From Candidatus Yanofskybacteria bacterium CG10_big_fil_rev_8_21_14_0_10_36_16 (GTDB lineage Bacteria > Patescibacteriota > Minisyncoccia > 2-02-FULL-40-12 > IGHO2-01-FULL-4-A), in contig PCXQ01000004.1 of NCBI GenBank assembly GCA_002794035.1, forward strand, positions 97,213-161,212: DNA of 64,000 nucleotides, given 5' to 3'. A program made the position numbers and the translations under genes. This document shows positions 13,035 to 64,000 of this stretch, piece after piece. Each line of letters begins with the position of its first letter. The first letter of the stretch is position 1. The notes under the pieces are model-generated. The model did no database searches and was not told where the DNA came from. It saw only the letters and a list, made by a program, of their open reading frames with translations.

Positions 13035-13039
13035 TAAAT

Positions 13040-13135: not shown

Positions 13136-13168
13136 CAAAAAGAAAAAACCCTTAACAATCATTATCTT

Positions 13169-15681: not shown

Positions 15682-17997
15682 CTAATTTACCGTTTCTCCC
15701 TTTAATGTCCTAATAAATCTGTCGGCCTCCAGTTGATAACTCGAATCTATCTCTGCTGCCTTAAGCGCCTGCTCAATCGCCTCCTCTATTCTGCCTATTC
15801 TGGCATATGCAGCTGCCAAAGATGCATGATACTGCGGATTGTTTGGTTTAAATTCAACGAGTGTTTCATAAAGTATTGCAATTTTTTGATAATCGTTCAG
15901 CGATACGTAAATATTAATCAAACGCAAAATATCACCCTCAGAAAAAACATATCCTAGTTCACGAGCTTTTTGCATCTCTTTAAAACCCTTATCAAATTCT
16001 TTCAAATCAAAATATGTAGCAGCAAGATACCAATGGCTCAAACCAACTTCCGGATGCAAATCCACAGCCTTTTGGAAATATTCAACAGCCTTTTCAAGTT
16101 CACCCTTATTAATATATGCTTGCCCTACCTCGTAATAAGTCCTGACAAATGTCGGAGAAATCTCAAGAGCTTTCATTGAGTTCTCAAGAGCATCATCGTT
16201 GTACTTAGAATTTTTGCCTTCGTCCTTGCCAAGAACAATATTCAAACGCGACACATAAAGATAGGGCAAATAATCTAAGTTTGTTTCTTCGATATTTTTG
16301 TTTACCTGTTCAATAGCAAAAATTAAATCCTGCTTGTCTTTATCACTTAAATCTTTATTGTTTGTCCTTTCTAAAACATATTGGGCAAACCTATTGCGAT
16401 GTTCATACTTGCCTGGTACATTATATGCCAATGCTTCCTTGTATTTCTCTACTGACTCAGCATGTTCACCGGCCCAACTCAATCTAATAGCCCTTGTTAA
16501 AGCATAATTTGCTTTTGATTGAAGAATATTCGTCTGATATATCAAAACCATCGCACCAACCAACAATATAATCATTAAAAGCTGAAGCTTACTACTCAAA
16601 GATGCGGGAAATACTCTGCGAATTGCAGTGTTGTTTTTATTTTTGTCAGATCCCAACTCATAATTTTCAACGACTCCCATCTGCTTTGGCGTTAGCCAAA
16701 CAATAAGTCCGAGTGTTGTGAAAAATACTACAAAGTTCGCCGAGGTATCAAAAATAAATGCGTTGTGTATCATGTAGGCCACAATAAGAGAAATCAAACC
16801 TATTCCAATATTTTTTTTAGATTGATCCTGAGTGTCTTTTATGGCTCGTGTCCAAATCAACCTAAAGGCAACCAGAAACATTGCTATATAAACCAAGAAG
16901 GTAAGCAATCCCATAGTTACCAAAACCTCAACAAACATATTGTGAGCTCGGTCAAATAAAGTCTCCGAACCTAAACCAGCAAAGAACTTAGGATTAAAGT
17001 GAATAGAAAATGGAACATTGAAATTTTCAGGACCCCATCCTAATAAAATTGTCTTTGTAGAATCATTCCAGCCATCAATTCCAGCACTCCACGCCCAAAA
17101 CCTAGTCTGGACTGTGTATGTTTTAAATGAAACATCTGTCATCCTTGTTAAGTAACCTGAATTTTTTACAAAATCGCTATCCTTAAAGGCAAAGACGAAG
17201 AAACCATACAAAACAGCGAGAGCCATTATGGCAGTCAAAATCTTTCTAGCAGCATGGGACCTAAAAACAATAAGGTGAAGAATAGTATAAACTATTAAGC
17301 CAACGCCCAATCCAAGAACAGAACCTCTAACAGCTGTCATTAAAACAGCAATTGAGCTTACAAAGGCAGCGATCAACAAAAAACTTCGCTCACGATTTGA
17401 AACCCAATTTGAAAATGCCAAAGCTCCGGCTAAAAACAGTGTTACCAACTGATAACCAGCAAATAATGCTGCGTTGCCAATTGTACCAAATATTCTAGTC
17501 CTACCACCTGAACCAACAATGAAATCTATATCAGTCTTTTGACCAAAACCGTAAACAGCAGATAAAAATCCAACAAAAATAGTCAAACGCAAAATATTAT
17601 GCCAATCTTTCCTTTCTTTAAATACTGAAATTAAAATTACAAAATATACTAAGTAGTGAACGAAGCTCCAAAGCCCGCCCATCCTTTCAAGAGAGCCCCA
17701 AAAACTTAAATAGGGATTGATACTAGTTGCCGTTGTAAGCACAAATGAGGCAGTCAACAAACCAAACACGACAAGAAGAGGATGTTTTGGTGGTAGCCAG
17801 CTGCGATCTTTCAATACTAAAATCAAATAAAAAACCGCTATCAATTCAACCAACGATCGAAAAACAACTACCTTGCCAAAATGAAACGGTGATACAAATT
17901 CTGAAAAAATTATTAATGGAACAAACGCCGTCAAATAAACCCCCGCCTTCAGGATTTTAACAATCCAATCTTCTCGTTGTGTCTTAAGTCTTACCAT
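15682..17997 (-). CDS. O-antigen ligase/Wzy-like polytopic membrane protein fused to C-terminal TPR repeats
   Basis: At least 10 predicted TM helices followed by about 250 aa TPR-like repeats (AxxYxxxG patterns). Confidence 0.65.
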
Positions 17998-18123: not shown

Positions 18124-20128
<2,005 letters not shown>

Positions 20129-20543: not shown

Positions 20544-20924
20544 TTACCCAGTTTTTAAAAGCAAAAATACTCCGATTATTATAATTACCATCCCCAAAAT
20601 ATGAACGGGCGTTAATGTTTCTTTATATAGAAACCAAGAAGCAATGGCTATCAAAACAATTTGGCTGCTTAAAGCAATCGGGTAAAAAACATTGAGTTGC
20701 ATCTTAGTTAAAAGCCAAACCCACAACACAAAAGCCAAACCAAATGACGCAAGTCCACCAAGAATATATAGATTCCCAAACATCAAGAACACAAAATCAA
20801 ATAGTTCTTTTGGGGGTTTGGGCAATGCCAGTGAATCACCCAAAACAAGTGTGCCTTTTTTTAATAAAAGATTGGCACCGGCAGATAATACAATTGATAA
20901 AAGTAAAATTAAAAAATTAAACAT
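20544..20924 (-). CDS. SMR/EamA-like 4-TM protein, ArnE/ArnF-like candidate flippase subunit
   Basis: 126 aa, 4 TM helices, GANLLLKKG motif; adjacent to DegT aminotransferase. Confidence 0.5.
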   Translation of the reverse strand: MFNFLILLLSIVLSAGANLLLKKGTLVLGDSLALPKPPKELFDFVFLMFGNLYILGGLASFGLAFVLWVWLLTKMQLNVFYPIALSSQIVLIAIASWFLYKETLTPVHILGMVIIIIGVFLLLKTG

Positions 20925-22014
20925 TATTATTAAAAAAAGTTTTTATTTTATCACACACATAATCTATTTGATCCTTGCTTAGGGTCAAAGATGATGGCAA
21001 CCACAAACCTCTTTTGGAAATCTCAGCAGACACAGGGAATTTTTTATTAGTATAACCTTTATACGCTGGCTGAGAATTTATTGATGGATAAAAAGCCCTA
21101 GTTCCTATATTGTTTAACTTGAGATATCCCATTAATTTTTTACGCTTTTCTACAGGAACTAAGATGTCAACAAATAAAGGAGTTGTTTCTGAAAAATCCA
21201 AATTTAAAAACTCAATTTCAGATACCCCAGAAAGATTTTTTTTATAAATTTTATACAGCTCTTTTTTTCTTTTTATGCGCTCTTTAATATTACTAATCTG
21301 AATCAAACCAACAACCGCTTGTAAATCAGAAAATTTAAAATTATATCCAACTGTTTCATGATAATCCATTCCCCCTTCCAGCCTACCAAAGTTTTTTAAC
21401 TTCTTTATCTTATCATATATTTTTTTGTTATTTGTAACAACGATTCCCCCGTTACCAGTACTTATTATTTTATGAAAGGTCAAAGAAAAACATCCGGCAT
21501 CACCAAATGTACCAAGAAACTTGCCTTTGTGCTTTGACCCAAATGACTGACAAGAGTCTTCTATTAAAAATATCCCCCTGTCTTTACACAACTTTCTCAA
21601 CTTTACAATGTCTCCGCTTCGGCCATTTATTGAAACGTATATGATAGCTTTTGTCTTTTTTGTTATTGGCAATATGTTTATATCCATACACATTGTCTCT
21701 GAATCAACATCTACAAAAACTGGCCTTGCCCCAGTAAACAAAATAGAGTTAGGAGTGGCTATCATAGTATAATCAGGAACAATAACTTCATCTCCCCTGC
21801 CAATACCTAGGGCCATAAGACACAACGACAGTGCCACGGTTCCATTGTTTGTGGCTATGGCATATTTTACCCCCAAAAATTCGGCAACGCTTTTTTCAAA
21901 TTCTTCGGTTTTTTCAAATTCTGCCATCCAACCACCCGAATTCAAATAAGCACCGACTGCGCGAGATTCTTTTTCGGTAATCCAAGGCTCAATTTGATTA
22001 ATAAATTTCTTCAT
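20917..22014 (-). CDS. DegT/DnrJ/EryC1/StrS family PLP-dependent sugar aminotransferase
   Basis: Family-typical fold-type I sugar aminotransferase sequence with active-site Lys region FHKIISTGNGG. Confidence 0.8.
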   Translation of the reverse strand: MKKFINQIEPWITEKESRAVGAYLNSGGWMAEFEKTEEFEKSVAEFLGVKYAIATNNGTVALSLCLMALGIGRGDEVIVPDYTMIATPNSILFTGARPVFVDVDSETMCMDINILPITKKTKAIIYVSINGRSGDIVKLRKLCKDRGIFLIEDSCQSFGSKHKGKFLGTFGDAGCFSLTFHKIISTGNGGIVVTNNKKIYDKIKKLKNFGRLEGGMDYHETVGYNFKFSDLQAVVGLIQISNIKERIKRKKELYKIYKKNLSGVSEIEFLNLDFSETTPLFVDILVPVEKRKKLMGYLKLNNIGTRAFYPSINSQPAYKGYTNKKFPVSAEISKRGLWLPSSLTLSKDQIDYVCDKIKTFFNNNV

Positions 22015-22960
22015 AATATTTAATGGTTCTTTTTAGACCATCTTCTAACTTAGTTTTTGGTACCCAACCAAAACTTTTTTTACATTTTGAAACATTAAAA
22101 ACTTTATACGGAGCTCCGTCAGGCTTAGATGTATCGAACACTAACTTACCCTTATATCCTGATTCTTTTTTAATTAACTGGGCCAATTTTTTTATGGAAA
22201 CCCCTTTGCCAGGACCAATATTTATTGGTTCTATTCCTAAACTTGTCCTAAATTTTATTGCTCTCATTATAGCCTCAACCCCGTCATCAACATAAAGCCA
22301 TTCTCTTATCGGATCACCACTGCCCCAAACAACAACCTCTTTCTCATTTTTGTTTTTAGCAGCAACAATTTTTTTAATAAGAGCTCCCAAGGCATGGCTT
22401 CGAACTTCATCAAAATGGTCACCCGGACCATACATGTTTGTAAAAATTAAATTAGCAAAATTCATTCCATATTGTTTATGATATGCCCAAGCATTAACCC
22501 AACTCGCCTTTCTAGACATGCCGTAGCTCAAAACAGATTCGTGAATTGGACCATCCCACCATTGATTCTCTTTGAATGGCTTATCAAGAGCTCCCGGATA
22601 TGTACAATTTGGAAGAATGTTAACAAACAAAGACACGCCAAATTCTTTGGCACATTCAATTAAATTTGCATTTATCAATGTATTATTTAAAAATATCTCA
22701 GCTGGCTTTTCATAACCAAACTGAATCCCTCCAACAAACGCAGCTACATTAACTATAATATTGGGCTTTTCTTTTTTAAAAATCTTTTTTAGATTATTTA
22801 AATCCCTAAAATCAATCCCCCTACTTATAGATGTCGCCACGTAGGGAATTTTATCTTTCCTTAACCTTTCAGCCAAATGTTGCCCCAAAAAACCTGTTCC
22901 TCCAGCAATAAATATTTTGTTTAAACTAAGTTTTGTTGAAATTTTACTTTTTTTAGCCAT
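21998..22960 (-). CDS. NAD-dependent epimerase/dehydratase, GDP-L-fucose-synthase-like paralog
   Basis: IFIAGGTGFLGQH Rossmann; overall similarity to Fcl at 19169..20128. Confidence 0.7.
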   Translation of the reverse strand: MAKKSKISTKLSLNKIFIAGGTGFLGQHLAERLRKDKIPYVATSISRGIDFRDLNNLKKIFKKEKPNIIVNVAAFVGGIQFGYEKPAEIFLNNTLINANLIECAKEFGVSLFVNILPNCTYPGALDKPFKENQWWDGPIHESVLSYGMSRKASWVNAWAYHKQYGMNFANLIFTNMYGPGDHFDEVRSHALGALIKKIVAAKNKNEKEVVVWGSGDPIREWLYVDDGVEAIMRAIKFRTSLGIEPINIGPGKGVSIKKLAQLIKKESGYKGKLVFDTSKPDGAPYKVFNVSKCKKSFGWVPKTKLEDGLKRTIKYYEEIY

Positions 22961-23021
22961 GTTGTATATTCTTAAAATAACTAAACAAATAATATAAATC
23001 TAATTGTAAAAAATATTTTTT

Positions 23022-24260
23022 GTGTTTATAGTCAAATATATGAATACCTGTATAATATGCCAAAACAAAACATTAAGTAAAGTCATTGAACTGGGGCACC
23101 ACCCTATAGCAGACACTTTTTTGAAAAAAGAAAGGATTTTGGAACCCCAAAAACTATACCCCCTGAATTGTCTTCTGTGCAAGAAATGCGGACACATCCA
23201 AAATGAATACGTAGTCCCACCAGAAGAAAGGTATATGGAAAATGATTATAGTTATACTGCCTCTAACTCAAAAATATCCTGCGAACACTGGCAAGAATAT
23301 TGCGATACAGTAAGTAATTACATAAACTTAAAAAAGGGTGACCACATAATTGAGTTTGGCTCCAATGATGGACTATTGTTAAGTTATTTCCAAAAGAAAG
23401 GCGCAAAAGCCACGGGAATTGATCCTTCACCAAACATGGCTAAACTTGCATCAAAACGAAATGTAAACACAATAAGCGGGCTACTGGGCAAAGAAACCCT
23501 TGCTACGGCCATACAAAAAAACAGCAAAGCAAAATTAATCTGTGGAAATAATGTATTCAATCACATATATAACTTAAATGATGTAATGCCTCATGTCATA
23601 GAAGCATTAGATAAAAATGGCTATTTTGTATTTGAGTCCCCATATGGAAAAGACATAATAGACAAATTTTTATTTGATACCATATATCACGAACATGCTT
23701 CTTACTTTTCAATAAAATCAGTTGATTTTCTATTTAAAAAACACGGGCTTTACATTTCAAATATAGAACATAATCTTTACCATGGTGGCTGTATCAGAGT
23801 ATATGCCTTAAAAGACATGTCTAAATACAATAAAAAATTGGTTAGCCGATACATTAAAGACGAAAATAAGAGTGGAATCTTTTCACTCAATACCTACAAA
23901 AAATTTATGGCAAAAATAGAAAAAGATAAGTTTGATACGCTTAGCCTTGTATATTCCCTAAAAAAGAAAAACCAAAAAATTGCTGCCATCGGTGCAGCTA
24001 CCAAAGGAAACACACTGATAAATTATTACAAACTTGATAGAAATGTGCTAGAATTTGTTACGGATACATCAAAACAAAAAATTGGCAAATACACTCCTGG
24101 CTCTCTTTTGCCCATATACCATGACAATAAATTATCATCTAAAAAAATAGATGTCGGATTGATTATTTCATGGAATATTGGCAAATTTTTGGCAAATAAA
24201 ATTAAAAAAATAAACCCCAAAATAAAATTGATAGTTCCGGGAGAAAAGAAGTTATTATAA
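23022..24260 (+). CDS. SAM-dependent methyltransferase with N-terminal zinc-ribbon and C-terminal C-methyltransferase domain (TylC3/NovU-like sugar C-MT family)
   Basis: CIICQN...CLLCKKCGH zinc-binding N-terminus, class I MT core, conserved C-terminal domain; paralog at 29147..30421. Confidence 0.65.
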   Translation: MFIVKYMNTCIICQNKTLSKVIELGHHPIADTFLKKERILEPQKLYPLNCLLCKKCGHIQNEYVVPPEERYMENDYSYTASNSKISCEHWQEYCDTVSNYINLKKGDHIIEFGSNDGLLLSYFQKKGAKATGIDPSPNMAKLASKRNVNTISGLLGKETLATAIQKNSKAKLICGNNVFNHIYNLNDVMPHVIEALDKNGYFVFESPYGKDIIDKFLFDTIYHEHASYFSIKSVDFLFKKHGLYISNIEHNLYHGGCIRVYALKDMSKYNKKLVSRYIKDENKSGIFSLNTYKKFMAKIEKDKFDTLSLVYSLKKKNQKIAAIGAATKGNTLINYYKLDRNVLEFVTDTSKQKIGKYTPGSLLPIYHDNKLSSKKIDVGLIISWNIGKFLANKIKKINPKIKLIVPGEKKLL

Positions 24261-24344
24261 CAAAATGGCAACCGATAGTAATTAATTGTAATTTATTGTG
24301 ACTACACTCAGCTACAACTAAGTACAATTAGTTATCATATAAAT

Positions 24345-24752
24345 TTGAAAAAAGAAAAAATAAAACCAGTCTTCAAAGACAAACGAGGAGACATTGCGGA
24401 TATTTTTTATAAAGAAAATATCAATCATGTTGCGGTTATTAATTCAAAAAAAGGAGCTTTGCGAGGTAATCACTATCACAAAAAAACCACTCAAGCAATG
24501 TTTATGTCTAAGGGCAGCTTAAGATACTACTACAAAGAATATGACAAAAAAAAGAAAGAGTGGGGCAAAACAAAAAGCATAGTAGTAAAGGAAAACGAAA
24601 TGGTAACCACCCCTTCATATGAAATTCATGCCCTTGAGATTTTAGAAAAAAATCAATTTATCGTATTTTCGTGGGGACTTCGTGGTGGTAAAGATTATGA
24701 AAGTGACACCTTTAGAACAAAACCAACACTGATAAAAAACAATAAAAAATGA
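24345..24752 (+). CDS. WxcM/FdtA-like cupin (sugar 3,4-ketoisomerase-like)
   Basis: 135 aa cupin with GNHYHK His motif typical of FdtA/QdtA family. Confidence 0.55.
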   Translation: MKKEKIKPVFKDKRGDIADIFYKENINHVAVINSKKGALRGNHYHKKTTQAMFMSKGSLRYYYKEYDKKKKEWGKTKSIVVKENEMVTTPSYEIHALEILEKNQFIVFSWGLRGGKDYESDTFRTKPTLIKNNKK

Positions 24753-25414
24753 AAACAACATTAATAATACCCGCACTCAACGAAGAGGGTGCCATAGGCA
24801 AAACACTAAAAGAAATACCTAGGAATTTTATTGATGAAATAATTGTTATTGATGGCCACTCAACAGACAATACCTTAAATGAAGCAAGAGAGGCCCTTAG
24901 AAACACCGACAAGGTTATAACCCAAAGAAGAAATGGGTTTGGTGGTGCATTATTTGATGCAGTAGAAATAGCAAACGGTGATGTAATCATGATAATGGAT
25001 GCAGATGGTTCTCATAACCCAAATGACATACCTAAAATTCTTGAAAAATTCACTAACAAAAATGATGTTGTAATGTCTTCTCGATACTCCAAAGGCGCCA
25101 GAAGTGACGACGATACACTGATTCGTTTACTCGGCAACTGGATATTCACTAAACTTACGAACATTATACACAAAACGAATGTATCGGATAGTTTATATTT
25201 TTTCTTTGCAATTTCTAGAGACAACTTCAAAAAATTAAATCTTCAAAATCATGGATTTGGTATATGTATAGAATTTTTAGTTAAAGCAAAGAGAGCTGGT
25301 TTAACCTTTAAAGAAATCCCCGCTATAGAAAGACCGCGACTTGCTGGCAAATCAAAAGTAAATGCCTTGAAAGATGGTTTTAAAATATTGAAGGTTATCC
25401 TTAAAAAGTATTGA
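24749..25414 (+). CDS. GT2 glycosyltransferase, polyprenyl-phosphate sugar synthase (DPM1/ArnC-like)
   Basis: IIPALNEE ... DGHSTDNT ... DADGSHNP GT2 DxD region; 221 aa soluble GT2 typical of Dpm1/ArnC. Confidence 0.8.
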   Translation: MKTTLIIPALNEEGAIGKTLKEIPRNFIDEIIVIDGHSTDNTLNEAREALRNTDKVITQRRNGFGGALFDAVEIANGDVIMIMDADGSHNPNDIPKILEKFTNKNDVVMSSRYSKGARSDDDTLIRLLGNWIFTKLTNIIHKTNVSDSLYFFFAISRDNFKKLNLQNHGFGICIEFLVKAKRAGLTFKEIPAIERPRLAGKSKVNALKDGFKILKVILKKY

Positions 25415-26207: not shown

Positions 26208-27830
26208 TTATATTTCATCTGCATAATCACCATGAACCCATCCCCATTCGTTGAATCCCTTTTTAATTTTGTACCAGCCATTTTCAACATCAACAAACGT
26301 GTATTCTTCTCCAGGCAAAACTTGTCCCAAAACATCATACCCCGTAGAAGAACCACTTCTTACTCTCAAATATCCTATACCCTGAACAACCCTTAGTTTA
26401 CCGCCAATTCTCATTTGGGCAAATTCTTGTCCTGATATTACCTGCACATCGGCCCAACTATATCCCGCCGCGTTAAATTCTGCTTCAGTCCTAACCCATA
26501 TCAATGTCCCGTCTTCTCCTTGAACGTAAACTTTCGGATCATTTGTTTTCCTAAAGAGCTTGGTCGGCATATCCGATGGGGCAATTTGAAGTGCTGCAAA
26601 TTCCGGTCCTGATATTACCTGCACATCTTCCCATTTGTATCCGGCGGCATTGAAATCTTCCAGCGTACTAACCCAATGAAGCACACCATCACCTTCATCT
26701 ACATAAACTTTGGGATCGGCAACTTTTCTGAACAGTTTAACTGATATTACCGGTGCAGGGGTCGGGCTTGCTGTTACTATGGGTGTCGGAGCCGGACTAA
26801 CCACAGGGGTAGGCGTTGGTGTGGGTGTTGGTGTAGCAAAAGGTGTTCCTCCCCCACCGCCAGCGCTTTTTTTAGAGGCAACAATAGTAACCGTGCTTTG
26901 TGCGTCACTGCCAGTTGTTCGGTCTGTATAGGTTCCTGTTTTAGTATCCAAATCGTAATGTGTTACAGAAGCAGTAGTCTCCGTATCAGCTATTGGAACA
27001 GCACAAAAATAATCCCCATAATTAGCACCAGTTCCAGCTGTACAGCTCGTACCTAAGCTGTCACCTGCCGTAACAATACCTGTGGAAAGATTTGTTGTAC
27101 CGCCGGATACCTGAAGAGTTACCTTAACACCAAAAGATAAGCCCGCTGTATCAATATCAGAATCCTGAGAAGAATCAAAGTCAACGCTTTGTGATGCAGT
27201 TGCTGAAATTGTTAAAGCCGCTGATGTTCCATTAATATAACCATCAGCACCTCCCGCAATAGTCCCACCACTGGTTGACCCTGCAATATATTTCTTACCT
27301 CCACTATATGACTGAGAAGCAACCGTACCACTATAAGTAGCTGAGGCAGTAGTGCCATCCAGAGTCAAGGTGTTGCCAAGTTCATCCTCGATACCATTTA
27401 CAACTATGGAGTAATCCATGCTCGCCAAAGCGCTGAACGGGTCACTGGCCGAGGCCGGAAGCGCGACTGTAAAATCTCTGGTAACCCAGCCATCAAGGGA
27501 AGCTGAACCAGTAATGGTGTCGCTAGTTCCAAAAATACAACCAGCATCGGTCATTTCCTTTGACGCGGAAGCAACCTTAATAATACCATCCGCTGCTTGA
27601 GTGCTTTCTGAGGCCGTATTGTCAGTTATTGTTCCGAGACCGCTACCACATGAAAAGTTTATGGTAACCCCGTTATCATTTAAAACATCTAGTTCTGTAT
27701 CAATTCTAAAAAACACAAACTCACCAGCATCTGCCGCATAAGTTTCTCCCGGAATTAATATTACTGCAAATAAAAAAACAACAAAAACTGCTAATAAATT
27801 AAAACTCCACCTAACTAAACTGCCTTTCAT
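26208..27830 (-). CDS. Secreted surface protein with Thr/Pro-rich linker, tandem 50-aa repeat domain and C-terminal SH3b-like domain
   Basis: Signal peptide; TPFATPTPTPTPTPVVSPAPTP linker; duplicated KLFRK..DPKVYV...FNAAGY..DVQVISG repeat; C-terminal SH3b-like segment. Confidence 0.55.
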   Translation of the reverse strand: MKGSLVRWSFNLLAVFVVFLFAVILIPGETYAADAGEFVFFRIDTELDVLNDNGVTINFSCGSGLGTITDNTASESTQAADGIIKVASASKEMTDAGCIFGTSDTITGSASLDGWVTRDFTVALPASASDPFSALASMDYSIVVNGIEDELGNTLTLDGTTASATYSGTVASQSYSGGKKYIAGSTSGGTIAGGADGYINGTSAALTISATASQSVDFDSSQDSDIDTAGLSFGVKVTLQVSGGTTNLSTGIVTAGDSLGTSCTAGTGANYGDYFCAVPIADTETTASVTHYDLDTKTGTYTDRTTGSDAQSTVTIVASKKSAGGGGGTPFATPTPTPTPTPVVSPAPTPIVTASPTPAPVISVKLFRKVADPKVYVDEGDGVLHWVSTLEDFNAAGYKWEDVQVISGPEFAALQIAPSDMPTKLFRKTNDPKVYVQGEDGTLIWVRTEAEFNAAGYSWADVQVISGQEFAQMRIGGKLRVVQGIGYLRVRSGSSTGYDVLGQVLPGEEYTFVDVENGWYKIKKGFNEWGWVHGDYADEI

Positions 27831-41550: not shown

Positions 41551-41628
41551 AGTGTCATCTCCTTTTTCCTTTTAAATTAACTACTTTCATTAAGATATAA
41601 TTAAACAACCCTAAAGTCAACAGCAACC

Positions 41629-53697: not shown

Positions 53698-55488
53698 CTA
53701 ATTTCTTATATTATAAAGTTTATAAAAATGAGAATCTTTATCTGATAAAAGCTTATCAGGAGTTCCCTGTTCAACTATTTTACCTTTTTCCAAAACTATA
53801 AGCTTGTCTGAATTTTTAACAGTTGACAGTCGGTGAGCAATAGCAAGAACAGTAACTCTCCCCTTAAGATTTTCTATGGCTTTTTGAATAGCTATTTCCG
53901 ATTTAGCATCTAGAGAACTAGTTGCCTCATCTAATATCAAAATTTCTGGCTGCCTTGCTAAGGTTCTTGCCAAAGCAATTCTTTGTCTTTGACCACCCGA
54001 AAGTTTTAAACCTCTTTCACCAATATTTGTATCATATCCCTCTGGAAGCTTTTTTATAAAATCGTGAATATTTGATAATTTAGCTGCATGTTCAACATCT
54101 TGATTTGTTATTGTTGAATCATAAAATTTTATATTATTTTTTATAGTATCATTCATCATAAAAACATCTTGTGGCACATAACCAATTTTTCTTCTCCAAC
54201 TTTTAATATTAAATTCTGAGATATTTTTCCCATCTACCAAAATTTCTCCGGATGAAGGATAGAACAATCTTAAAATTAAATCTGCTATGGTGGTTTTACC
54301 AGCACCAGACACACCAACCAAGCCTACCATTTCTCCCTTTTTTATTTCAAAATTAACATTTGATATAACCTTTGTAGAATCTTCGTAAGCAAAAGAAATA
54401 TCTTTTAGTTCTATCTTGTCTTTAAATTCAAAATTAACAGATCCTGAGTATTCTTCTTTGTTTGATGTAGCCAAGGACCTAAAATCAATAACGGTTTGAA
54501 CATAAGGAGACATCTCGCTTATTCTATGAATGCTACCCTGAGCTGCCTGAATGAAAGAAAACATTTTTTGAATCAAATACACAACAGCACCAAATGATAT
54601 AACACTAAAGCTTGGAGAATTTAAATAAAAACCAAACAATATAGCCACAAAAACAAAACCCACCGGCTCAAATATGGAACCGACGGAATGCACATAAATA
54701 GAAACTTGCACCCTAGCCTTTTTTAAATTTTCAAAATAACCCAAGCTTTTATTAGTTACTCTATCTTCTGCAGAAGATGTTTTAACTATTTTAGATCCCA
54801 AAATACTCTCGCTTACATGATGCGTTACTAATTTTTCGGTATCGGCAAGTTCTTTTGACTTAGATCTTGTCTTGTAAAAAATTGGCTTAAACACAAACAG
54901 CAAAAATAAACCAAACACCATCGTAACAATGGTAATAACGGCAGATATATTAAACGCAACAATTGCGTACATGAAAAAACTAGTTGTAAATATAATCAAC
55001 GTACTTAAATGCACAAACATTCTGGAACTAATCGTAACATCATTCATTAAAACTCGCTCAACATATCCAAGACGTTGATTAATTAAATAAGGCCACCTTG
55101 AATGCATAACCTTATTGAAAAGATCAGCCCTTACCTCCTCTTCATATTCTGCCGCTGTTTTATCATTTATATATTTATACAAAAAATTAATTACCCCTTT
55201 AATTATAAACATTACTGTTATAAAAAAGACTACAGACATCAAACTGAATGGAATATGCAAAAATTCAAAAACACTTTTTAGTAATTCTGTGATCGCATTA
55301 CCTTCCTCTACCAAATCCCCTGCGACAATTGAAAAAAGAGGTATTATAGCTCCAACACCAAAACCACCCGACAAACCGGACAAAACCCCCAAAACAAAAA
55401 TAAGCAATAATCTTTTTCTATACCTCCTAAACCCCCTAAAAGCCAGTCTTATTATTCGTTTTATTTTTTTGCTATTAATTAAAAACAT
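53698..55488 (-). CDS. ABC transporter, fused permease/ATPase exporter (MsbA-like)
   Basis: 6-TM domain + Walker A GVSGAGKTT, signature LSGGQRQRIALAR, Walker B ILILDEATS. Confidence 0.85.
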   Translation of the reverse strand: MFLINSKKIKRIIRLAFRGFRRYRKRLLLIFVLGVLSGLSGGFGVGAIIPLFSIVAGDLVEEGNAITELLKSVFEFLHIPFSLMSVVFFITVMFIIKGVINFLYKYINDKTAAEYEEEVRADLFNKVMHSRWPYLINQRLGYVERVLMNDVTISSRMFVHLSTLIIFTTSFFMYAIVAFNISAVITIVTMVFGLFLLFVFKPIFYKTRSKSKELADTEKLVTHHVSESILGSKIVKTSSAEDRVTNKSLGYFENLKKARVQVSIYVHSVGSIFEPVGFVFVAILFGFYLNSPSFSVISFGAVVYLIQKMFSFIQAAQGSIHRISEMSPYVQTVIDFRSLATSNKEEYSGSVNFEFKDKIELKDISFAYEDSTKVISNVNFEIKKGEMVGLVGVSGAGKTTIADLILRLFYPSSGEILVDGKNISEFNIKSWRRKIGYVPQDVFMMNDTIKNNIKFYDSTITNQDVEHAAKLSNIHDFIKKLPEGYDTNIGERGLKLSGGQRQRIALARTLARQPEILILDEATSSLDAKSEIAIQKAIENLKGRVTVLAIAHRLSTVKNSDKLIVLEKGKIVEQGTPDKLLSDKDSHFYKLYNIRN

Positions 55489-55828: not shown

Positions 55829-55855
55829 AAAAAGCGGCCTTGTACCGCTTTTTTA
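55829..55855. terminator. Bidirectional hairpin terminator (agcgg-ccttgta-ccgct flanked by A/T runs)
   Basis: Hairpin + T-run on both strands at stop of GT-C gene. Confidence 0.5.
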
Positions 55856-57529
55856 CTCTACCATCGCCTCTTCTGATTTTTTACAATCATATATTATAGC
55901 TGGGATGTGGCCTGAGTATTTTTGGTAGATTATTTTGCAGGAATCAAAATATTTTGTGTACATACTATCTTCTTCTATTTTTGGAATGTTTATAACAAGA
56001 TAATGGCCGTGAAAACTATTTAGTAAATCTGCATGTACTTTTTCATTTTTTGGTATAGCATAAATTCTTTTTTCATATTTACCAATATTAGTTAGCTCTG
56101 TCCCGCCAATATCACGGTAAGTTATTATGCTTTTAATTTCATCATTATCTTCTATATATCTCACGGCATTATTTAAAAGTGCATAAGAATCACCGTTAAA
56201 TTTACCGAATAAATACTCTTCAACAAAAATAAAATTGTACAGAGCACCCACCACTAATACTGCAATTAAAACGCCCTGCCTCAACTTTCTTTTTGCAAAA
56301 TACAATACAACTAGCGTTGCTGTTAAAATCCATACAACTCCAATAAATAACCACGAAACATAAAAACCAAGAGGACCAGAACCACCCGTAAAAGGAAACA
56401 AGAAGTTCCAATCAAAACTTAAAATTCTGCCAAACCATTCCTCTTTTGGATACTGTGGAGGTGCAACATGGGGCAAGAAATTTATAAACAACAAAACAGC
56501 TCCGGCATATAAAGCCCAAAAAACACTTAATTTATTTTTTAACACCTGCCTTATACCTCCTGCCCCTTTTAAAAAATCTGAAATAGCAACACCTGATATC
56601 ACAGAAAGAGGTACGACAATCAAAGCCAGGTATTTATCCAGTGCTGCACGGGAAAAATCAAATAAAACCACATAAAAAAGAAAACTTAAAATAAAAAATA
56701 TTATAAAAATCCTTATTTCAGCCAATCGTTTTCTGGTGATAAAAAACGGAATTGCAATAAGCAATGGAGATGCATAAAAAATAGCTTTTGAAACTTGTAT
56801 TAATATCTGTAGATAGCTTCTCCCTGAAATATTTGAAAAATCACGAGCATAATTAATTGCCTTCAATACGCCACCGTCTTGTAAGATTGATTCGGCCCTA
56901 AAAAATAAAAATCCCCCAACAGCCAAAATACCCAAAACCAAAAAAGTAGTACCTCTAATAAGCTTCTTTGAAAACAGGTGCCTTTTCTCAAATATGAAGT
57001 CCGTAATTATTGCACCAATTAATATAATAAAGCTTAGCTTAGTAAAAAATCCTAAGGCTAATGAAACTAAAAGCGCTATCCCCCATTTATAACTATCCAC
57101 CTCTCTAAATTTAAAATAATAAACTAAGGACAACAAAAAGGAAAATGGTAAAACAGCCCCATCCAAATCAACAGTATGAGAAGCTAAAACACTATAGAAA
57201 GATATTGAAAAAAATAAAGATGACCATAATGCTGCCTTTATGCCAAACCAGCGTTTTACAAGATAATAAAGTAAAAATAAATTAGCGATACTAAAAATAA
57301 ACGGAGTAAATCTAAAATTATCATTGCCAAAAACTGTTGCCGTTAAGCTCCACAAAAACTCCCCAATGGGCGGATGAGGTGTATCAATCATCTCCCCGCT
57401 GCCAAACGGGCCAACCCCGGCATATTTACGTTCATCCTGAAAGTAAGAAAAATCCAATCCCCAAACGCGAATTAAAATAAAAATTGCCAAAATTATGGCA
57501 AGAATAATAATTTCTTTCTTTCTATTCAT
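55853..57529 (-). CDS. GT-C fold polytopic membrane glycosyltransferase (ArnT/PMT-like, GT39/83-type)
   Basis: About 12 TM helices, DE-containing first extracytoplasmic loop (YFQDERKY), C-terminal soluble domain. Confidence 0.55.
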   Translation of the reverse strand: MNRKKEIIILAIILAIFILIRVWGLDFSYFQDERKYAGVGPFGSGEMIDTPHPPIGEFLWSLTATVFGNDNFRFTPFIFSIANLFLLYYLVKRWFGIKAALWSSLFFSISFYSVLASHTVDLDGAVLPFSFLLSLVYYFKFREVDSYKWGIALLVSLALGFFTKLSFIILIGAIITDFIFEKRHLFSKKLIRGTTFLVLGILAVGGFLFFRAESILQDGGVLKAINYARDFSNISGRSYLQILIQVSKAIFYASPLLIAIPFFITRKRLAEIRIFIIFFILSFLFYVVLFDFSRAALDKYLALIVVPLSVISGVAISDFLKGAGGIRQVLKNKLSVFWALYAGAVLLFINFLPHVAPPQYPKEEWFGRILSFDWNFLFPFTGGSGPLGFYVSWLFIGVVWILTATLVVLYFAKRKLRQGVLIAVLVVGALYNFIFVEEYLFGKFNGDSYALLNNAVRYIEDNDEIKSIITYRDIGGTELTNIGKYEKRIYAIPKNEKVHADLLNSFHGHYLVINIPKIEEDSMYTKYFDSCKIIYQKYSGHIPAIIYDCKKSEEAMVE

Positions 57530-57622: not shown

Positions 57623-58795
57623 TTAGAATTTAAAACTTCCAAAAAATTCATAAAATTTCTGGGCAATCACACTGTTTGAGTAATGATTAATAACATAATT
57701 GCGCCCAGCTTCGCCAAAACGTTTTTTTAATTCTTTATCCTTAGCCAATCTTAACATAGCCTCAGCCAGTTGGGCTTGGTTATTCTCCTCAACTAAAATA
57801 CCGGTTATCTCATCTACTACCACATCTTCTATCGAACCTGATTTTGTAGCAATAACAGGCAATTCGCAAAGCGACGCTTCTGCCATGGAATAACCAAACT
57901 GTTCAGCCCATCCCTTATTACTAATACTAGGGTATAAAAATATATCAGATGATGCCAAGAGTTCCGGAAGTTCTTCATGACTAAGCCAAGGAATTCTTAT
58001 AACATATTTTTTAATTTTTAAGTCACCAATCAATTCATCAATCTCTTTTTCATATTCTCCTGATCCTGCAATAATAAAACAAGTGTCGGGTAAATTCTTT
58101 TTTATTTCAGCAAAGGATTTAAGGGCTACATGTACTCCCTTTCTATATCCTATGGCACCAGCAAAAGCAAATACTATTTTATTTTCTAATTTATGTTTTT
58201 TTATAAAACCAGATGCATTACTTGGTTTAAATTTAAATTCATCTAGTCCGGCAATAGGAATAACATCAAGTGGCTTATCAGTGAGGCCCAAAAATATTTC
58301 CTTACATTTTTTGTTGCCACAAACCACTCCGTCAACGAACTTTATATTAAGCTTTAAAATTAATTTCAAAACAAAACCTTTTGGACCCTTAAATTTTTCA
58401 TCAAAAGGAATATTTTCCCAACTGAATACGACGTGCTTTAGTCCAAATATTTTTGCCCAAATTCCATTCCAAAGCGTTGAAAGCAAAACTGGTTCTAAAG
58501 CACTATAAAGCATTTTTACATCTTTTGTTTTTGCCAGCGCCAAATGAAAAGGCAAAAACGGCATCCAGCCCTTAAGAGTTCCCCCGATAAGCGGATAATT
58601 TGAATGATAAAAAAGAGTAGTTGTTTTGCGTATCTTTAAATAATTGTTTTTGGGCGGTCTGTATTCTACTTTACCCCCTTTTGCCTTCCATAGTCTTGGC
58701 AACAAAAAAACCAAATCCTCAGGCTTGGGATATTTTTCAAACGTCTTTATATATGACTCTTTGATATACGGATAACCCGTAACTAATATCTTCAT
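57623..58795 (-). CDS. Glycosyltransferase family 1 (GT4)
   Basis: GT-B C-terminal domain with EX7E motif (EQFGYSMAEASLCELPVIAT). Confidence 0.8.
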   Translation of the reverse strand: MKILVTGYPYIKESYIKTFEKYPKPEDLVFLLPRLWKAKGGKVEYRPPKNNYLKIRKTTTLFYHSNYPLIGGTLKGWMPFLPFHLALAKTKDVKMLYSALEPVLLSTLWNGIWAKIFGLKHVVFSWENIPFDEKFKGPKGFVLKLILKLNIKFVDGVVCGNKKCKEIFLGLTDKPLDVIPIAGLDEFKFKPSNASGFIKKHKLENKIVFAFAGAIGYRKGVHVALKSFAEIKKNLPDTCFIIAGSGEYEKEIDELIGDLKIKKYVIRIPWLSHEELPELLASSDIFLYPSISNKGWAEQFGYSMAEASLCELPVIATKSGSIEDVVVDEITGILVEENNQAQLAEAMLRLAKDKELKKRFGEAGRNYVINHYSNSVIAQKFYEFFGSFKF

Positions 58796-58818
58796 TCATA
58801 CCCCCACTCCTTTATCTA

Positions 58819-58852
58819 TACACATCCTTAAATTCTCAAGTTTTTAAGGATG
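58819..58852. promoter_or_regulatory. Conserved upstream motif copy 2 with perfect 10-bp inverted repeat catccttaaa-N10-tttaaggatg
   Basis: Perfect IR seen in sequence; 24-57 nt upstream of GT4 start. Confidence 0.6.
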
Positions 58853-58900
58853 TAATTTGATTTTGTGGGTTTATAAATTAAAAAATGGATTTTTACTTTA

Positions 58901-59188
58901 TTATTGTTCCAATTGAAATGCTTTTAAAAACTTAACAAACCTTTTACCATACGGGGAGAGGGTGTGTTCAACAAAATGATCGCGATATTTTTTATTAAGT
59001 AACCCTGCCGTAAAAAGTCGTCTAGTGTGCTCACCAATTGTTTTCTCATTTGCTTTTAGTGTTTTGGCTATTTTTTCTAAAGTTATTTTTGGACTATCTG
59101 CTACGAGCAGAAGAATCTCTATACGATAATGGTTGGCTATTCCTTTTAGGTGCCTCTCCATTTGTTTTGCTGTTTTGGTTTTATTCAT
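58901..59188 (-). CDS. ArsR/SmtB-like winged-helix transcriptional regulator
   Basis: HLKGIANHYRIEILLLV resembles ArsR HTH; likely start MNKTKTAKQ at 59188. Confidence 0.5.
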   Translation of the reverse strand: MNKTKTAKQMERHLKGIANHYRIEILLLVADSPKITLEKIAKTLKANEKTIGEHTRRLFTAGLLNKKYRDHFVEHTLSPYGKRFVKFLKAFQLEQ

Positions 59189-59202
59189 AATGTTTCTAGT
59201 AT

Positions 59203-59239
59203 ACACAGCATACTTAAATTCTTAAGTTTTTAAGGATAT
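59203..59239. promoter_or_regulatory. Conserved upstream motif copy 3 (acacagcatacttaaattcttaagtttttaaggata)
   Basis: Degenerate copy of the motif, 15-51 nt upstream of the ArsR-like gene. Confidence 0.5.
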
Positions 59240-59255
59240 ATTTTTGTTGGTGTTT

Positions 59256-60284: not shown

Positions 60285-60299
60285 TTAAATCTTTTATTA

Positions 60300-60475
60300 G
60301 GTTAATAACTCGTACGTTTGCCCAAGTTCGAGACAAAATGGTTGAGGAATGATGAGGCGTACTGTAGCTACGTCGAATTATTCCGAAACCATTTTAACAA
60401 AGAAATTGGGTAAACCTTCTTAGGCTTGAGCAGGATAAGCCCGTTTGGTTAGGGCTTCCTGCGAAAGCGTGCGAG
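60300..60475. other. GC-enriched structured intergenic element (nested stems aatggtt/aaccatt, ggaat/attcc), related to element at 61676..61770
   Basis: Compositional island in AT-rich background; nested complementarity; partial similarity to reverse complement of 61690-61765. Confidence 0.35.
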
Positions 60476-63751: not shown

Positions 63752-63967
63752 CTACCAGAAAAAACTTTCTAAATTCAAGAAGTTATCCTCAGCCTCTTTG
63801 AAACTAAATCCTGTTTTATTAGCTAAGGCAAAATTACCTATTTTATAATTTGCATATGCGAAAAGAACCCTTGCCGACTCATCTGTCGGATTGTCGCCAT
63901 AATATTTGGTTATAACATTTATAGCTTTTTGATAATTATGGGCTCTTATTTGGCTAATGACATACAA
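63752..63967 (-). CDS. Hypothetical protein, probably truncated by window end
   Basis: ORF only. Confidence 0.2.
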   Translation of the reverse strand: MYVISQIRAHNYQKAINVITKYYGDNPTDESARVLFAYANYKIGNFALANKTGFSFKEAEDNFLNLESFFW

Positions 63968-64000
63968 AATCTTGTTGCCTTCACCGCTGTAATTTAAGAC

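Follow-up and report, generated by a model that had tools for sequence, protein, structure and literature searches.

Genes for a putative three-component extracytoplasmic glycosylation system in a Candidatus Yanofskybacteria glycan island

Gene content and organization of the locus

We have analyzed a 64,000-nt stretch of Candidatus Yanofskybacteria DNA (PCXQ01000004.1, a 288-kb contig, positions 97,213-161,212; assembly GCA_002794035.1), hereafter the window. A glycan island occupies 15.6-64 kb of the window, and its relevant features are summarized in Table 1. A first-pass annotation had described four of the ORFs, encoding a DegT-family aminotransferase, a 4-TM protein, a GT2 and a GT-C glycosyltransferase, as an Arn-like pathway assembled from dispersed genes. 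All four ORFs are present where that annotation had placed them. Dispersal holds only for the GT-C gene, ~30 kb away; the flippase-like 4-TM gene, the DegT gene and the GT2 gene are confined to 4.9 kb and belong to two divergent and translationally coupled operons. The 4-TM gene, in the operon divergent from that of the GT2, is 3.8 kb from the GT2 gene, and its first 8 nt overlap the end of the DegT gene. On the plus strand, the end of the cupin gene and the start of the GT2 gene overlap by 4 nt.

Table 1. Predicted features of the window discussed in the text
Position	Strand	Predicted product	Family matches and remarks
15682..17997	-	Wzy_C (O-antigen-ligase-like) + TPR membrane protein	Pfam Wzy_C, TPR
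18124..19167	+	GDP-mannose 4,6-dehydratase (Gmd)	TIGR01472 gmd; Pfam GDP_Man_Dehyd
19133..20128	+	GDP-L-fucose-synthase-like epimerase/reductase	NCBIfam GDPFucSynFcl
20544..20924	-	ArnE-like 4-TM SMR/EamA-type protein, putative polyprenyl-phosphate-sugar flippase	Pfam EamA
20917..22014	-	PLP-dependent sugar aminotransferase, DegT family	Pfam DegT_DnrJ_EryC1
21998..22960	-	Second GDP-fucose-synthase-like SDR (epimerase/reductase)	Pfam Epimerase; NCBIfam Fcl
23022..24260	+	NDP-hexose 3-C-methyltransferase, zinc-ribbon + MT13/14 type	Pfam Methyltransf_13, _14, _23
24345..24752	+	Small cupin	Pfam Polysacc_synt_C, FdtA
24749..25414	+	DPM1/DPMS-like GT2, putative polyprenyl-phosphate amino-deoxyhexose synthase	221 aa
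25411..26106	+	Class I SAM methyltransferase, GT2-coupled	Pfam Methyltransf_11, _25
26208..27830	-	Secreted Ser/Thr/Gly-rich protein, Pro-Thr linker, SH3_3 domain	Pfam SH3_3
28009-29157		Glycosyltransferase	Orthologue of the L091 GT4 that follows the GT2-methyltransferase pair
40771-41550, 47630-48436		Formyltransferase-like genes	Inside nonulosonic-acid clusters
46656-47629		NodB deacetylase, frameshifted	Inside nonulosonic-acid clusters
53698..55488	-	PglK/MsbA/HepA-type ABC half-transporter, adjoining the GT-C	Pfam ABC_membrane, ABC_tran
55853..57529	-	GT-C fold glycosyltransferase, PMT_2 superfamily	558 aa; Pfam PMT_2; multi-spanning
57623..61675	-	Three GT4 glycosyltransferases, upstream of the GT-C	Pfam Glycos_transf_1
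63755..64000	-	C-terminal end of a second GT-C (PMT_2 + TPR, 582 aa), cut by the window edge	Match to L001 18442-20196

Gene neighbourhoods were compared among 26 loci anchored on orthologues of the GT2 gene, with 47 glycan loci as controls. This synteny check, which the first-pass annotation had proposed, supports the module: in 20 of the 26 loci the GT2 orthologue has a DegT gene next to it.

Sugar nucleotide and tailoring genes

The Gmd assignment is firm, at 508.8 bits to TIGR01472 (cut-off 415) and 445 bits to Pfam GDP_Man_Dehyd, and 17 of the 26 related loci have a Gmd orthologue together with the GT2. As a bona fide Gmd it would provide a GDP-4-keto-6-deoxymannose precursor. Its mechanical ORF begins at 17977, as against the gene start used here. 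The DegT protein (328 bits to its Pfam family) has QdtB, perosamine synthases and others as its top relatives in the PDB, with ArnB about 24th, and probably acts on the 4-keto group of a GDP-6-deoxyhexose. The 3-C-methyltransferase is related to MtmC (4rv9, E 8.6e-65) and TcaB9 in the PDB. The small cupin, weakly matching RmlC-type epimerases and the Cap5F cupin domain, is probably a keto-sugar epimerase or isomerase; it is kept upstream of the GT2 in L001, L004, L006, L007, L019, L090 and L091.

Two GDP-fucose-synthase-like reductases are also encoded at the locus, and they fit poorly with a simple 4-amination route. The first scores 284 bits to GDPFucSynFcl, under the cut-off of 500, and may represent a side branch or an alternative tailoring step. 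The second, with 241 bits to Fcl (likewise under the cut-off), opens the minus-strand operon and occupies the same place in L007 and L091.

The GT2 and its coupled methyltransferase

The GT2 at 24749 is the only one in the window. It lacks a membrane domain, with no predicted TM segments, and its nearest relative of solved structure is the Pyrococcus furiosus DPMS. The two enzymes share the full-length catalytic domain, with the metal-binding DxD and the helices on the acceptor side, and the family profile matches DPMS (1.6e-30) and ArnC (5.5e-13) across this domain. The top NCBIfam matches are all polyprenyl-phosphate glycosyltransferases. The protein, described as a soluble DPM1/ArnC-type enzyme in the first-pass annotation, groups with polyprenyl-phosphate glycosyltransferases, where that annotation had taken membership of another kind of GT2 as evidence against its pathway. 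The dehydratase, aminotransferase and C-methyltransferase genes are tightly linked to the GT2 gene, and the transferred sugar is therefore almost certainly not mannose; we infer that the donor is a modified GDP-6-deoxyhexose instead.

Most related loci have an orthologue of the methyltransferase at 25411 immediately 3' of their GT2 gene. The PDB relatives of this enzyme are generic, including phospho-base and phospholipid N-methyltransferases, and its probable function is N- or O-methylation of the sugar, while bound to the nucleotide or to the lipid.

The ArnE-like 4-TM protein

The only ORF of this kind in the window encodes 126 aa with four predicted hydrophobic segments. Its top NCBIfam matches, ArnE (35 bits, cut-off 92) and ArnF (34 bits, cut-off 99), rank above every drug-SMR model; identity to E. 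coli ArnE is 30% over 122 aa, and the family profile matches E. coli ArnE with an hhalign probability of 96% and ArnF with 72%. These results corroborate the earlier label of an ArnE/F-like 4-TM SMR protein. Proton-coupled drug SMRs need a Glu in TM1, and TM1 of this protein has none. The K+R bias between the two faces is 5 versus 2, which speaks against the dual topology expected of an antiparallel homodimer.

The 4-TM gene is present in 11 of the 26 GT2-anchored loci as compared with 2 of the 47 control glycan loci (Fisher p = 1e-4), an association with the GT2 beyond chance. A GT-C gene lies within 10 kb of the GT2 in 15 of the 26. Among compact operons, L009 has the order Gmd-cupin-DegT-GT2-methyltransferase-4TM-GT-C and L024 the order DegT-GT2-4TM-GT-C; the 4-TM homologue immediately precedes a GT-C gene in L001, L002, L008-L010, L012, L014, L024 and L097.

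These associations bear on the reading that the genes are functionally unlinked members of a big surface-glycan island, the GT2 adding a sugar in the cytoplasm to a growing glycan or to a soluble or protein acceptor, and the 4-TM protein being a small metabolite or drug exporter or a GacJ/DPM3-like anchor or activator of the GT2. We regard this as very improbable, given the recurrent adjacency of GT2, 4-TM and GT-C genes across CPR lineages, the low rank of the drug-SMR models, and the full-length match of the GT2 to DPMS, which clearly outranks the other matches and extends to the acceptor-side helices.

The GT-C protein and its gene block

Apart from the protein encoded at 55853, the window has no complete PMT_2-type GT-C. 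The AF2 model of this protein (pLDDT 90) has a GT-C fold with a small alpha/beta C-terminal domain, and an invariant Asp-Glu motif occupies positions 32-33. It had been called ArnT/PMT-like. Membership of the ArnT family (GT83) does not stand, the hhalign probability of its family profile to E. coli ArnT being 14%. Protein O-mannosyltransferases of the PMT family (GT39) combine a loop-1 Asp-Glu motif with a luminal MIR domain. Pfam matches of the window protein are to PMT_2 only, both PMT (PF02366) and MIR being absent; some orthologues match PF02366 weakly. STT3 and AglB are near structural neighbours. An STT3/PglB/AglB-type oligosaccharyltransferase, an assignment that the first-pass annotation had counted among those refuting its proposal, is rejected by the absence of a WWDxG (WWD) motif and of an STT3 Pfam match.

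The GT-C gene belongs to a conserved DAO/GFO/GT4/GT-C/ABC block, also found in L086 and L173, which includes the three GT4 genes; GT4-GT-C fusion proteins are known as well (P0216, P0224). The ABC half-transporter is a conserved neighbour of the GT-C orthogroup and matches HepA, MsbA and PglK, in each case under the cut-off. The GT4 enzymes probably build an acceptor glycan, and the transporter probably exports a lipid-linked glycan that could be this acceptor.

The pairing of this GT-C with the module, as proposed in the first-pass annotation, is uncertain; L001, and in part L097, are the only loci that tie the orthogroup to a 4-TM gene or the module. L001 has the orthologues of all four window genes in one uninterrupted run: ABC, HTH, GT-C, 4TM and DegT genes lie on one strand, the GT-C directly 3' of the 4-TM gene, and the C-methyltransferase, cupin, GT2 and methyltransferase genes on the other. 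In L097 the 4-TM gene abuts the GT-C orthologue. In most relatives the GT-Cs right after the 4-TM gene have no detectable BLASTP similarity to the window GT-C, and those of L002, L008-L010, L012, L014 and L024 come from other subfamilies. About 47 loci place the GT-C orthogroup in blocks of GT4, another DPM1-like ('L087a-type') GT2, GT-C and ABC genes, without the window-type GT2, DegT and MT11 methyltransferase. Being flanked by such DPM1-like GT2s, the orthogroup appears generally to use a polyprenyl-phosphate-monosaccharide donor; one orthologue is a fusion with GtrA.

A second GT-C gene, with PMT_2 and TPR domains, reaches the right edge of the window and had been missed in the first-pass annotation. 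Its counterpart in L001 (18442-20196) fits the GT-C profile at E 8e-71, and L173 has the gene in full (995-2743), with a weak PMT_2 match and TPR. This protein is an alternative transferase candidate.

It is possible, if rather unlikely, that the donor system (Gmd, tailoring enzymes, GT2, methyltransferase and 4-TM protein) is genuine and that another GT-C performs the transfer, either this second protein or one encoded elsewhere in the genome, the GT-C at 55853 serving a separate GT4/ABC-exporter pathway with a donor from another DPM1-like GT2. The ~47 loci lacking the window-type module point this way, as do the type-B modules and L091, where the module is paired with other PMT_2 subfamilies, and the position of the second gene, which adjoins the block both in this genome and in L001. 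However, the window holds no L087a-type GT2 that could serve such a pathway, and the same-strand 4TM-GT-C arrangement of L001 argues for a direct connection. Overall, the GT-C at 55853 leads the candidates for the transferase that acts outside the membrane, although this role is unproven.

An archaeal-style lipid-monophosphate glycan pathway must also be weighed. Here the GT2 would be an AglJ-like initiator, whose polyprenyl-monophosphate sugar is extended by GT4s in the cytoplasm, exported by the PglK/MsbA-like ABC transporter and moved en bloc by a GT-C or the Wzy_C-TPR ligase. AglJ is the first NCBIfam match of the GT2, but at 133 bits it is far under the cut-off of 325. Among the ORFs of the 15.6-64 kb island we found no initiating phosphoglycosyltransferase, of either the Bac_transf or the WecA/MraY type, and GT4 genes come straight after the GT2-methyltransferase pair in L090 and L091, the one in L091 being orthologous to the window gene at 28009; the structural proximity of STT3 and AglB to the GT-C is also consistent with this scheme. 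The Wzy_C-TPR protein is 33% identical (E 3e-110) to one encoded in the GT2 operon of L091 (8921-11101). Such a pathway nevertheless seems improbable to us: the compact operons of L009 and L024 contain no further glycosyltransferases, a 4-TM SMR-type flippase fits a lipid-linked monosaccharide and not an oligosaccharide, and the GT-C has neither the WWDxG motif nor an STT3 domain.

Proposed pathway

We give about an even chance to the reading that the genes at 18.1-26.1 kb specify the cytoplasmic and flipping components of a three-component (Gtr/Arn-type) system for extracytoplasmic glycosylation, with the GT-C at 55853-57529 as the most likely third part. The steps below are predictions from families, homology and gene context. 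Gmd, whose family assignment exceeds the curated cut-off, would convert GDP-mannose to GDP-4-keto-6-deoxymannose. The 3-C-methyltransferase, the cupin epimerase/isomerase and the DegT enzyme may then yield a perosamine-type 4-amino-4,6-dideoxyhexose, probably 3-C-methyl-branched, as their families suggest. From structural and sequence similarity and the gene neighbourhood, we infer that the DPMS-like GT2 loads this sugar on polyprenyl phosphate at the inner membrane face. The GT2-coupled methyltransferase would methylate the sugar, a dimer of the ArnE-like protein would flip the lipid-linked monosaccharide, and the GT-C would consume it outside the membrane. Speculatively, the acceptor could be a GT4-built glycan exported by the PglK/MsbA-like transporter or a Ser/Thr-rich surface protein. 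A speculative acceptor glycoprotein of the latter kind is encoded at 26208; the local GC of this gene is 42%, compared to ~33% around it, and its L001 orthologue (47% identity) lies close to the module.

Comparison with known systems

The general logic of the Arn proposal, loading on polyprenyl phosphate, flipping and transfer outside by a GT-C, is supported by the family assignments and by the gene order kept in relatives. As in the Arn system of E. coli and Salmonella (PmrHFIJKLM), a 4-keto sugar nucleotide would be transaminated by a DegT-family enzyme and loaded by a GT2, DegT and GT2 genes are neighbours in most relatives (compare arnB-arnC), the 4-TM protein is of ArnE type, and the N-terminal Asp-Glu motif of the GT-C resembles the 'DETRYAE' of ArnT. 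However, the precursor here is GDP-mannose via Gmd where Arn uses UDP-glucuronate via ArnA, the module is not accompanied by a formyltransferase or a deformylase, a single flippase gene replaces the ArnE/ArnF pair, the GT2 lacks the membrane helices of ArnC and is closer to DPMS, and the GT-C profile does not match ArnT. Membership of the Arn pathway itself (ArnBCADTEF) is rejected, since the equivalog scores are far under the cut-offs (ArnB 183/631, ArnC 33/529, ArnE 35/92, ArnF 34/99), there is one flippase gene, no ArnA- or ArnD-type genes occur in the module or its relatives, and the precursor is GDP-mannose. The host, a CPR bacterium, is not known to have lipid A.

In mycobacteria the short GT2 PpgS makes a polyprenyl-phosphate amino sugar, and the GT-C Rv3779 decorates a wall glycan. 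The combination of a short GT2 for such a donor with a GT-C is shared, but the mycobacterial sugar (galactosamine on arabinogalactan) and nucleotide are different, that module has no SMR-type flippase gene, and the window GT2 scores only 49 bits to PpgS, far under the cut-off of 370. Compared with PfDPMS (5mlz), DPM1 and actinobacterial Ppm1, which work with PMT or ALG GT-Cs, the sugar is almost certainly other than mannose; the GT2 also lacks the membrane domain of PfDPMS, and the GT-C the MIR domain of PMT enzymes.

The streptococcal GacL decorates an ABC-exported rhamnan, and the window GT-C, adjoining GT4 genes and an ABC exporter, resembles this case; GacI and the window GT2 both lack a membrane domain. 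Systems of the Gtr type (GtrA/GtrB/GtrX; CsbB/GtcA/YfhO; GacI/GacJ/GacK/GacL; PMC8035078) share with the locus a polyprenyl-phosphate-sugar synthase GT2, a small flippase and an outside-acting GT-C. Unlike in these systems, the flippase is SMR/ArnE-like and not GtrA- or Wzx-like, the donor would be a tailored amino-deoxyhexose from a GDP-sugar in place of Glc or GlcNAc from a UDP-sugar, and the GT2 has a dedicated methyltransferase coupled to it.

There is documented precedent for a 4-TM EmrE/ArnE-like flippase in three-component systems (PMC11127046; PMC8035078). In Citrobacter youngae O1/O2 a four-helix EmrE/ArnE-like flippase occurs together with a GT-C, as here, and serves the post-polymerisation decoration of an ABC-exported glycan, although the sugar there is a pentofuranose, a phosphoribosyltransferase in place of a GT2 makes the lipid donor from PRPP, and the GT-C founds family GT136 (PMC11127046). 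The locus most likely represents a fresh case of the known three-component scheme, from a lineage that is unexplored, and not a new kind of system.

Layout of the surface-glycan island

GC content is about 33% in this CPR/Parcubacteria genome, and housekeeping genes fill the window from 1 to 15.6 kb: a fragment of the dcw cluster, GAPDH and a split transketolase. A single large surface-glycan island begins at 15.6 kb and takes up the remainder of the window. From left to right it contains a Wzy_C-TPR protein; Gmd and Fcl-like genes with the module analyzed here; a second C-methyltransferase/dehydratase set; a GT9, a Maf/PseD-like gene and a B12-radical-SAM gene; two nonulosonic-acid clusters; and a block of an ABC exporter, a GT-C, three GT4 genes, GFO and DAO.

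Coordinates of the features discussed, with locations in relatives where named
Feature	Position (strand)	Description
Transketolase	12039-14432 (-)	separate N- and C-terminal genes
Small ORF	13169-13552	phosphoribosyltransferase domain; between the transketolase genes
Wzy_C-TPR protein	15682-17997 (-)	771 aa; O-antigen-ligase-like (Wzy_C), C-terminal TPR repeats
4TM	20544-20924 (-)	126 aa; four hydrophobic segments
DegT	20917-22014 (-)	typical PLP sugar aminotransferase
GT2	24749-25414 (+)	DPM1/DPMS-like
Methyltransferase	25411-26106 (+)	coupled to GT2
Secreted protein	26208-27830 (-)	540 aa; Ser/Thr/Gly-rich N-terminal part, PTPTPTP linker, two repeats, SH3_3 domain
Second branched-sugar gene set	28009-31404	GT4, C-methyltransferase, Gmd-like dehydratase
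C-methyltransferase of this set	29147-30421	
Gmd-like dehydratase of this set	30418-31404	scores under the gmd cut-off
Unannotatable protein	37475-38662	395 aa
First nonulosonic-acid cluster	38671-46585 (-)	NeuB, 2-epimerase, CMP-transferase; also PseB/LegB-like dehydratase, two DegT, formyltransferase, SDR
NodB ORF 1	46656-47234 (+)	VTFDDGLSDHY
NodB ORF 2	47117-47629 (+)	HTHTHVS; Pfam Polysacc_deac_1 match
Formyltransferase-like gene	47630-48436 (+)	directly 3' of NodB ORF 2
Second nonulosonic-acid cluster	48450-51372 (-)	NeuB, 2-epimerase, CMP-transferase
Unannotatable protein	51373-52575	400 aa
Conserved block	53698-63741	DAO-like flavoprotein, GFO/IDH/MocA oxidoreductase, three GT4, GT-C, small HTH_17 protein, PglK/MsbA-like ABC exporter
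GT-C	55853-57529 (-)	PMT_2 superfamily
Second GT-C, C-terminus	63755-64000 (-)	582 aa in full, PMT_2 and C-terminal TPR repeats
Second GT-C, full gene	L173 995-2743	
Ortholog of second GT-C	L001 18442-20196	near the module
Second three-part set in L002	L002 1870-5280	WbqC and PIG-L-type deacetylase with DPM1-like GT2 and PMT_2 GT-C

The first-pass annotation had proposed an Arn-like pathway assembled from four dispersed genes, encoding DegT, 4TM, GT2 and GT-C. All four ORFs are where it placed them, but they are less dispersed than proposed: 4TM, DegT and GT2 are grouped in two divergent operons separated by a 62-bp spacer. The minus-strand operon reads Fcl-like, DegT, 4TM, with overlaps of 17 and 8 nt, and the plus-strand operon reads 3-C-methyltransferase, cupin, GT2, methyltransferase, with 4-nt overlaps. 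A further Fcl-like gene and a bona fide Gmd sit just upstream.

Genes flanking the module also recur in a relative, L091. An ortholog of the Wzy_C-TPR protein (33% identity), a candidate en-bloc glycan ligase or protein O-oligosaccharyltransferase, shares an operon with GT2 there, and the GT4 of the second branched-sugar set is orthologous to part of a GT4-GT4 fusion that follows the module.

The two nonulosonic-acid clusters are separate and share one island in a genome that is very small. The unannotatable proteins beside them may be transferases. Between the clusters lie the formyltransferase-like gene and a NodB-type polysaccharide deacetylase whose two overlapping ORFs appear to have been separated by a frameshift; the gene may be a pseudogene, or the frameshift may be programmed or an error of sequencing.

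Families of the module proteins

Gmd passes its curated cut-off (TIGR01472, 509 bits against 415). The solved structures nearest to DegT are QdtB, perosamine synthases and similar enzymes, with ArnB well below these. For 4TM the top family matches are ArnE and ArnF, above every drug-SMR model and far under the equivalog cut-offs. E. coli ArnE is 30% identical to it over the full length, and a profile of the 14-sequence 4TM family matches ArnE with an hhalign probability of 96% and ArnF with 72%. The observation made in the first-pass annotation, including the likeness to ArnE, is therefore confirmed. As 4TM has no family matches other than ArnE, ArnF and SMR models, a role as a GacJ/DPM3-like anchor was judged unlikely. 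The C-methyltransferase falls in the NDP-hexose 3-C-methyltransferase family (MtmC, 8.6e-65; TcaB9), and the cupin is weakly similar to epimerases of the RmlC and Cap5F types.

Homologs of GT2 number in the hundreds at 53-71% identity, the closest from a cultured organism being in Arthrobacter (~36%). Neither GT-C nor GT2 fell outside the expected classes: GT-C did not classify as an oligosaccharyltransferase or an unrelated GT-C family, nor GT2 as a non-polyprenyl enzyme. Sequence comparison of GT-C with the PDB gave no match, either with the single sequence or with a 55-sequence profile, and a fold search was the only informative structural comparison.

No initiating phosphoglycosyltransferase of the Bac_transf or WecA/MraY type was detected in the 48-kb island (window 15600-64000), which still holds at least six glycosyltransferases, an ABC exporter and a ligase-like protein. 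This absence, together with AglJ being the top match of GT2, prompts an alternative in which GT2 is an AglJ-like initiator and the lipid-monophosphate sugar is extended, passes out through the ABC transporter and undergoes en-bloc transfer. We consider this improbable overall; the reading developed below is that the lipid-linked monosaccharide itself is flipped and transferred.

Conservation of gene order around GT2

Loci anchored on GT2 were collected by contig look-ups, a scan of species-representative genomes and profile searches of six-frame ORFs. The comparison set comprises 26 distinct loci with orthologs of at least 41% identity, from CPR lineages, Nitrospirota, Elusimicrobia and some proteobacterial MAGs. 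Homologs of 4TM were located with the family's own profile on six-frame ORFs of the fetched loci; a word-indexed search returned 5.

DegT adjoins the GT2 ortholog in 20 of the 26 loci, a Gmd ortholog is found in 17, and a methyltransferase lies directly 3' of GT2 in most. Within the fetched flanks, 15 loci have a GT-C of the PMT_2 type. In eight loci 4TM is followed by a GT-C, directly or with one methyltransferase gene between them, as in the orders Gmd-cupin-DegT-GT2-MT-4TM-GT-C (L009) and DegT-GT2-4TM-GT-C (L024). The exact divergent layout of the window is common to L007 and L091. A 4TM homolog is found in 11 of the 26 loci, as against 2 of 47 control glycan loci (Fisher p = 1e-4), and the family is specific to the GT2 context. 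In L002 and L004, the genes of 126/127 aa between the dehydratase and DegT were considered as 4TM orthologs and rejected; on alignment they are soluble cupins, weakly WbuC-like.

These associations are strong indirect evidence that GT2, 4TM and a GT-C act together. That the genes are unlinked, and GT2 not directed at a polyprenyl carrier, is very improbable.

The candidate partner GT-C

Which GT-C completes the module is less clear. In L001, whose GT2 is 69% identical to that of the window, the genes are contiguous: ABC, HTH, GT-C, 4TM and DegT on the minus strand, and C-methyltransferase, cupin, GT2 and methyltransferase on the plus strand. The GT-C in this locus is a full-length ortholog of the window enzyme (38% identity, E 3e-117). 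The DAO-to-ABC-exporter block around GT-C recurs in related Parcubacteria (L086, L173, L001), and L001 has the amino-sugar module inserted into this block. Inside the window, 55853 is the sole complete PMT_2-type GT-C, 20544 the sole SMR-like ORF and 24749 the sole GT2. In another locus, L097, a 4TM gene abuts a GT-C ortholog.

The closest orthologs of GT-C (46-57% identity) lie in a conserved GT4 / GT-C / HTH / ABC exporter block beside nonulosonic-acid genes. Among ~47 metagenomic GT-C-ortholog loci of at least 9 kb, none contained the window-type GT2, DegT or methyltransferase. Most have a different short DPM1/AglJ-like GT2 directly upstream of GT-C, with only 22-27% identity to that of the window. 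This usual neighbor is missing in the window, where the 24749 module is the only candidate within 64 kb. Fusions of GT-C to a GtrA-family flippase domain (one ortholog, 705 aa) and to a GT4 domain (two orthologs, about 906 aa), in the set P0220, P0216 and P0224, are Rosetta-stone hints of functional partners. The orthogroup thus appears to use a flipped polyprenyl-P-monosaccharide, and its donor synthase varies between lineages.

A 17-kb assembly carrying GT-C revealed a second GT-C gene with TPR repeats, which starts just outside the window beside the DAO gene. Its architecture resembles that of eukaryotic TMTC protein O-mannosyltransferases. The GT-Cs found 3' of 4TM in other relatives have no BLASTP similarity to 55853. 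That the module is genuine and its partner is another GT-C is unlikely, yet it is the most serious of the alternatives. Synteny in the relatives supports a linkage of GT2, DegT, 4TM and a GT-C; the link to 55853 holds in L001 and fails in the ~47 loci, and the chances that 55853 is paired specifically with the GT2 module are roughly even.

Predicted pathway and acceptors

The conserved core of Gmd and DegT resembles the GDP-perosamine route and points to a 4-amino-4,6-dideoxyhexose as donor, 3-C-methylated in the window's subtype. Gmd, assigned by a curated threshold, would produce GDP-4-keto-6-deoxymannose; the remaining steps are predicted from homology and context. Methylation at C-3, epimerization and 4-transamination would give a branched perosamine-like GDP-sugar, which GT2, a DPMS-like peripheral membrane enzyme, would move to polyprenyl phosphate. 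The coupled methyltransferase may N- or O-methylate the sugar, before or after this transfer. The ArnE-like 4TM protein would then flip the lipid-linked sugar, and a GT-C would attach it outside the membrane.

Two kinds of acceptor are plausible. One is a glycan that the three GT4 enzymes would assemble and that the PglK/MsbA/HepA-like ABC transporter next to GT-C would export; this would be analogous to streptococci, in which GacL decorates an ABC-exported rhamnan. The other is a surface protein rich in Ser, Thr and Pro, such as the secreted protein at 26208-27830, possibly a glycoprotein acceptor or a wall-binding protein. Its gene has a local GC content of 42% against the 33% background and breaks a methyltransferase-to-GT4 run that is otherwise conserved (compare L091); L001 has a 47%-identical ortholog close to the module.

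Comparison with known systems

Many CPR lineages, as well as MAGs of Nitrospirota and Elusimicrobia, carry the conserved core of Gmd, DegT, DPMS-like GT2 and methyltransferase, to which an ArnE-like 4TM and a GT-C are often added. Tentatively, this core may represent a previously undescribed, widespread pathway to a perosamine-type 4-amino-4,6-dideoxyhexose linked to polyprenyl phosphate, in this genome 3-C-methyl-branched and methylated. Such a pathway would be a hexose counterpart of the aminoarabinose system: in bacteria that lack LPS, the envelope or surface proteins would receive an amino sugar that is cationic or methylated, which might tune surface charge or host attachment in episymbionts. 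The surface glycans of CPR/Patescibacteria are essentially uncharted, and glycosylation in Saccharibacteria has been termed 'unexplored' (PMC11623550). The way of life of CPR bacteria is attachment to other microbes, so host recognition is probably governed by the chemistry of their surface. The locus offers a concrete gene set for a lipid-linked amino-sugar donor beyond the LPS world, and the conserved module could improve the annotation of hundreds of metagenomic genomes.

The module resembles Arn in handling a 4-amino sugar, in the adjacency of DegT and GT2 and in its ArnE-like protein. Membership of the Arn pathway nevertheless failed every test. The equivalog scores are far under the Arn cut-offs, the module has a single flippase gene and no equivalent of ArnA or ArnD, it starts from GDP-mannose, and no match to E. 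coli ArnT was obtained with the family profile of GT-C. The formyltransferase-like genes and the NodB deacetylase (46656-48436, 40771-41550) were considered as analogs of ArnA-N and ArnD and rejected, since their place is within the nonulosonic-acid clusters and genes of this kind are absent next to the module in the relatives. A second three-part set in L002 suggests a lipid-linked N-acetyl-amino sugar that is then deacetylated, and comes closer than the window's module to the logic of Arn, Bordetella or Francisella. The interpretation in the first-pass annotation is partly supported: the general logic of a lipid-linked amino sugar stands, the module is not a member of the Arn pathway, and the chances of the pairing with 55853 are about even.

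The module would work instead like three-component glycosylation systems (reviewed in PMC8035078), and a Citrobacter system of this kind provides a precedent for a 4-helix EmrE/ArnE-like flippase (PMC11127046). Three-component glycosylation is well established in Gram-negative and Gram-positive bacteria, and no new mechanism or principle is revealed here; the value of the locus lies in the unexplored lineage, the unusual donor sugar predicted for it and the breadth of the conserved module.
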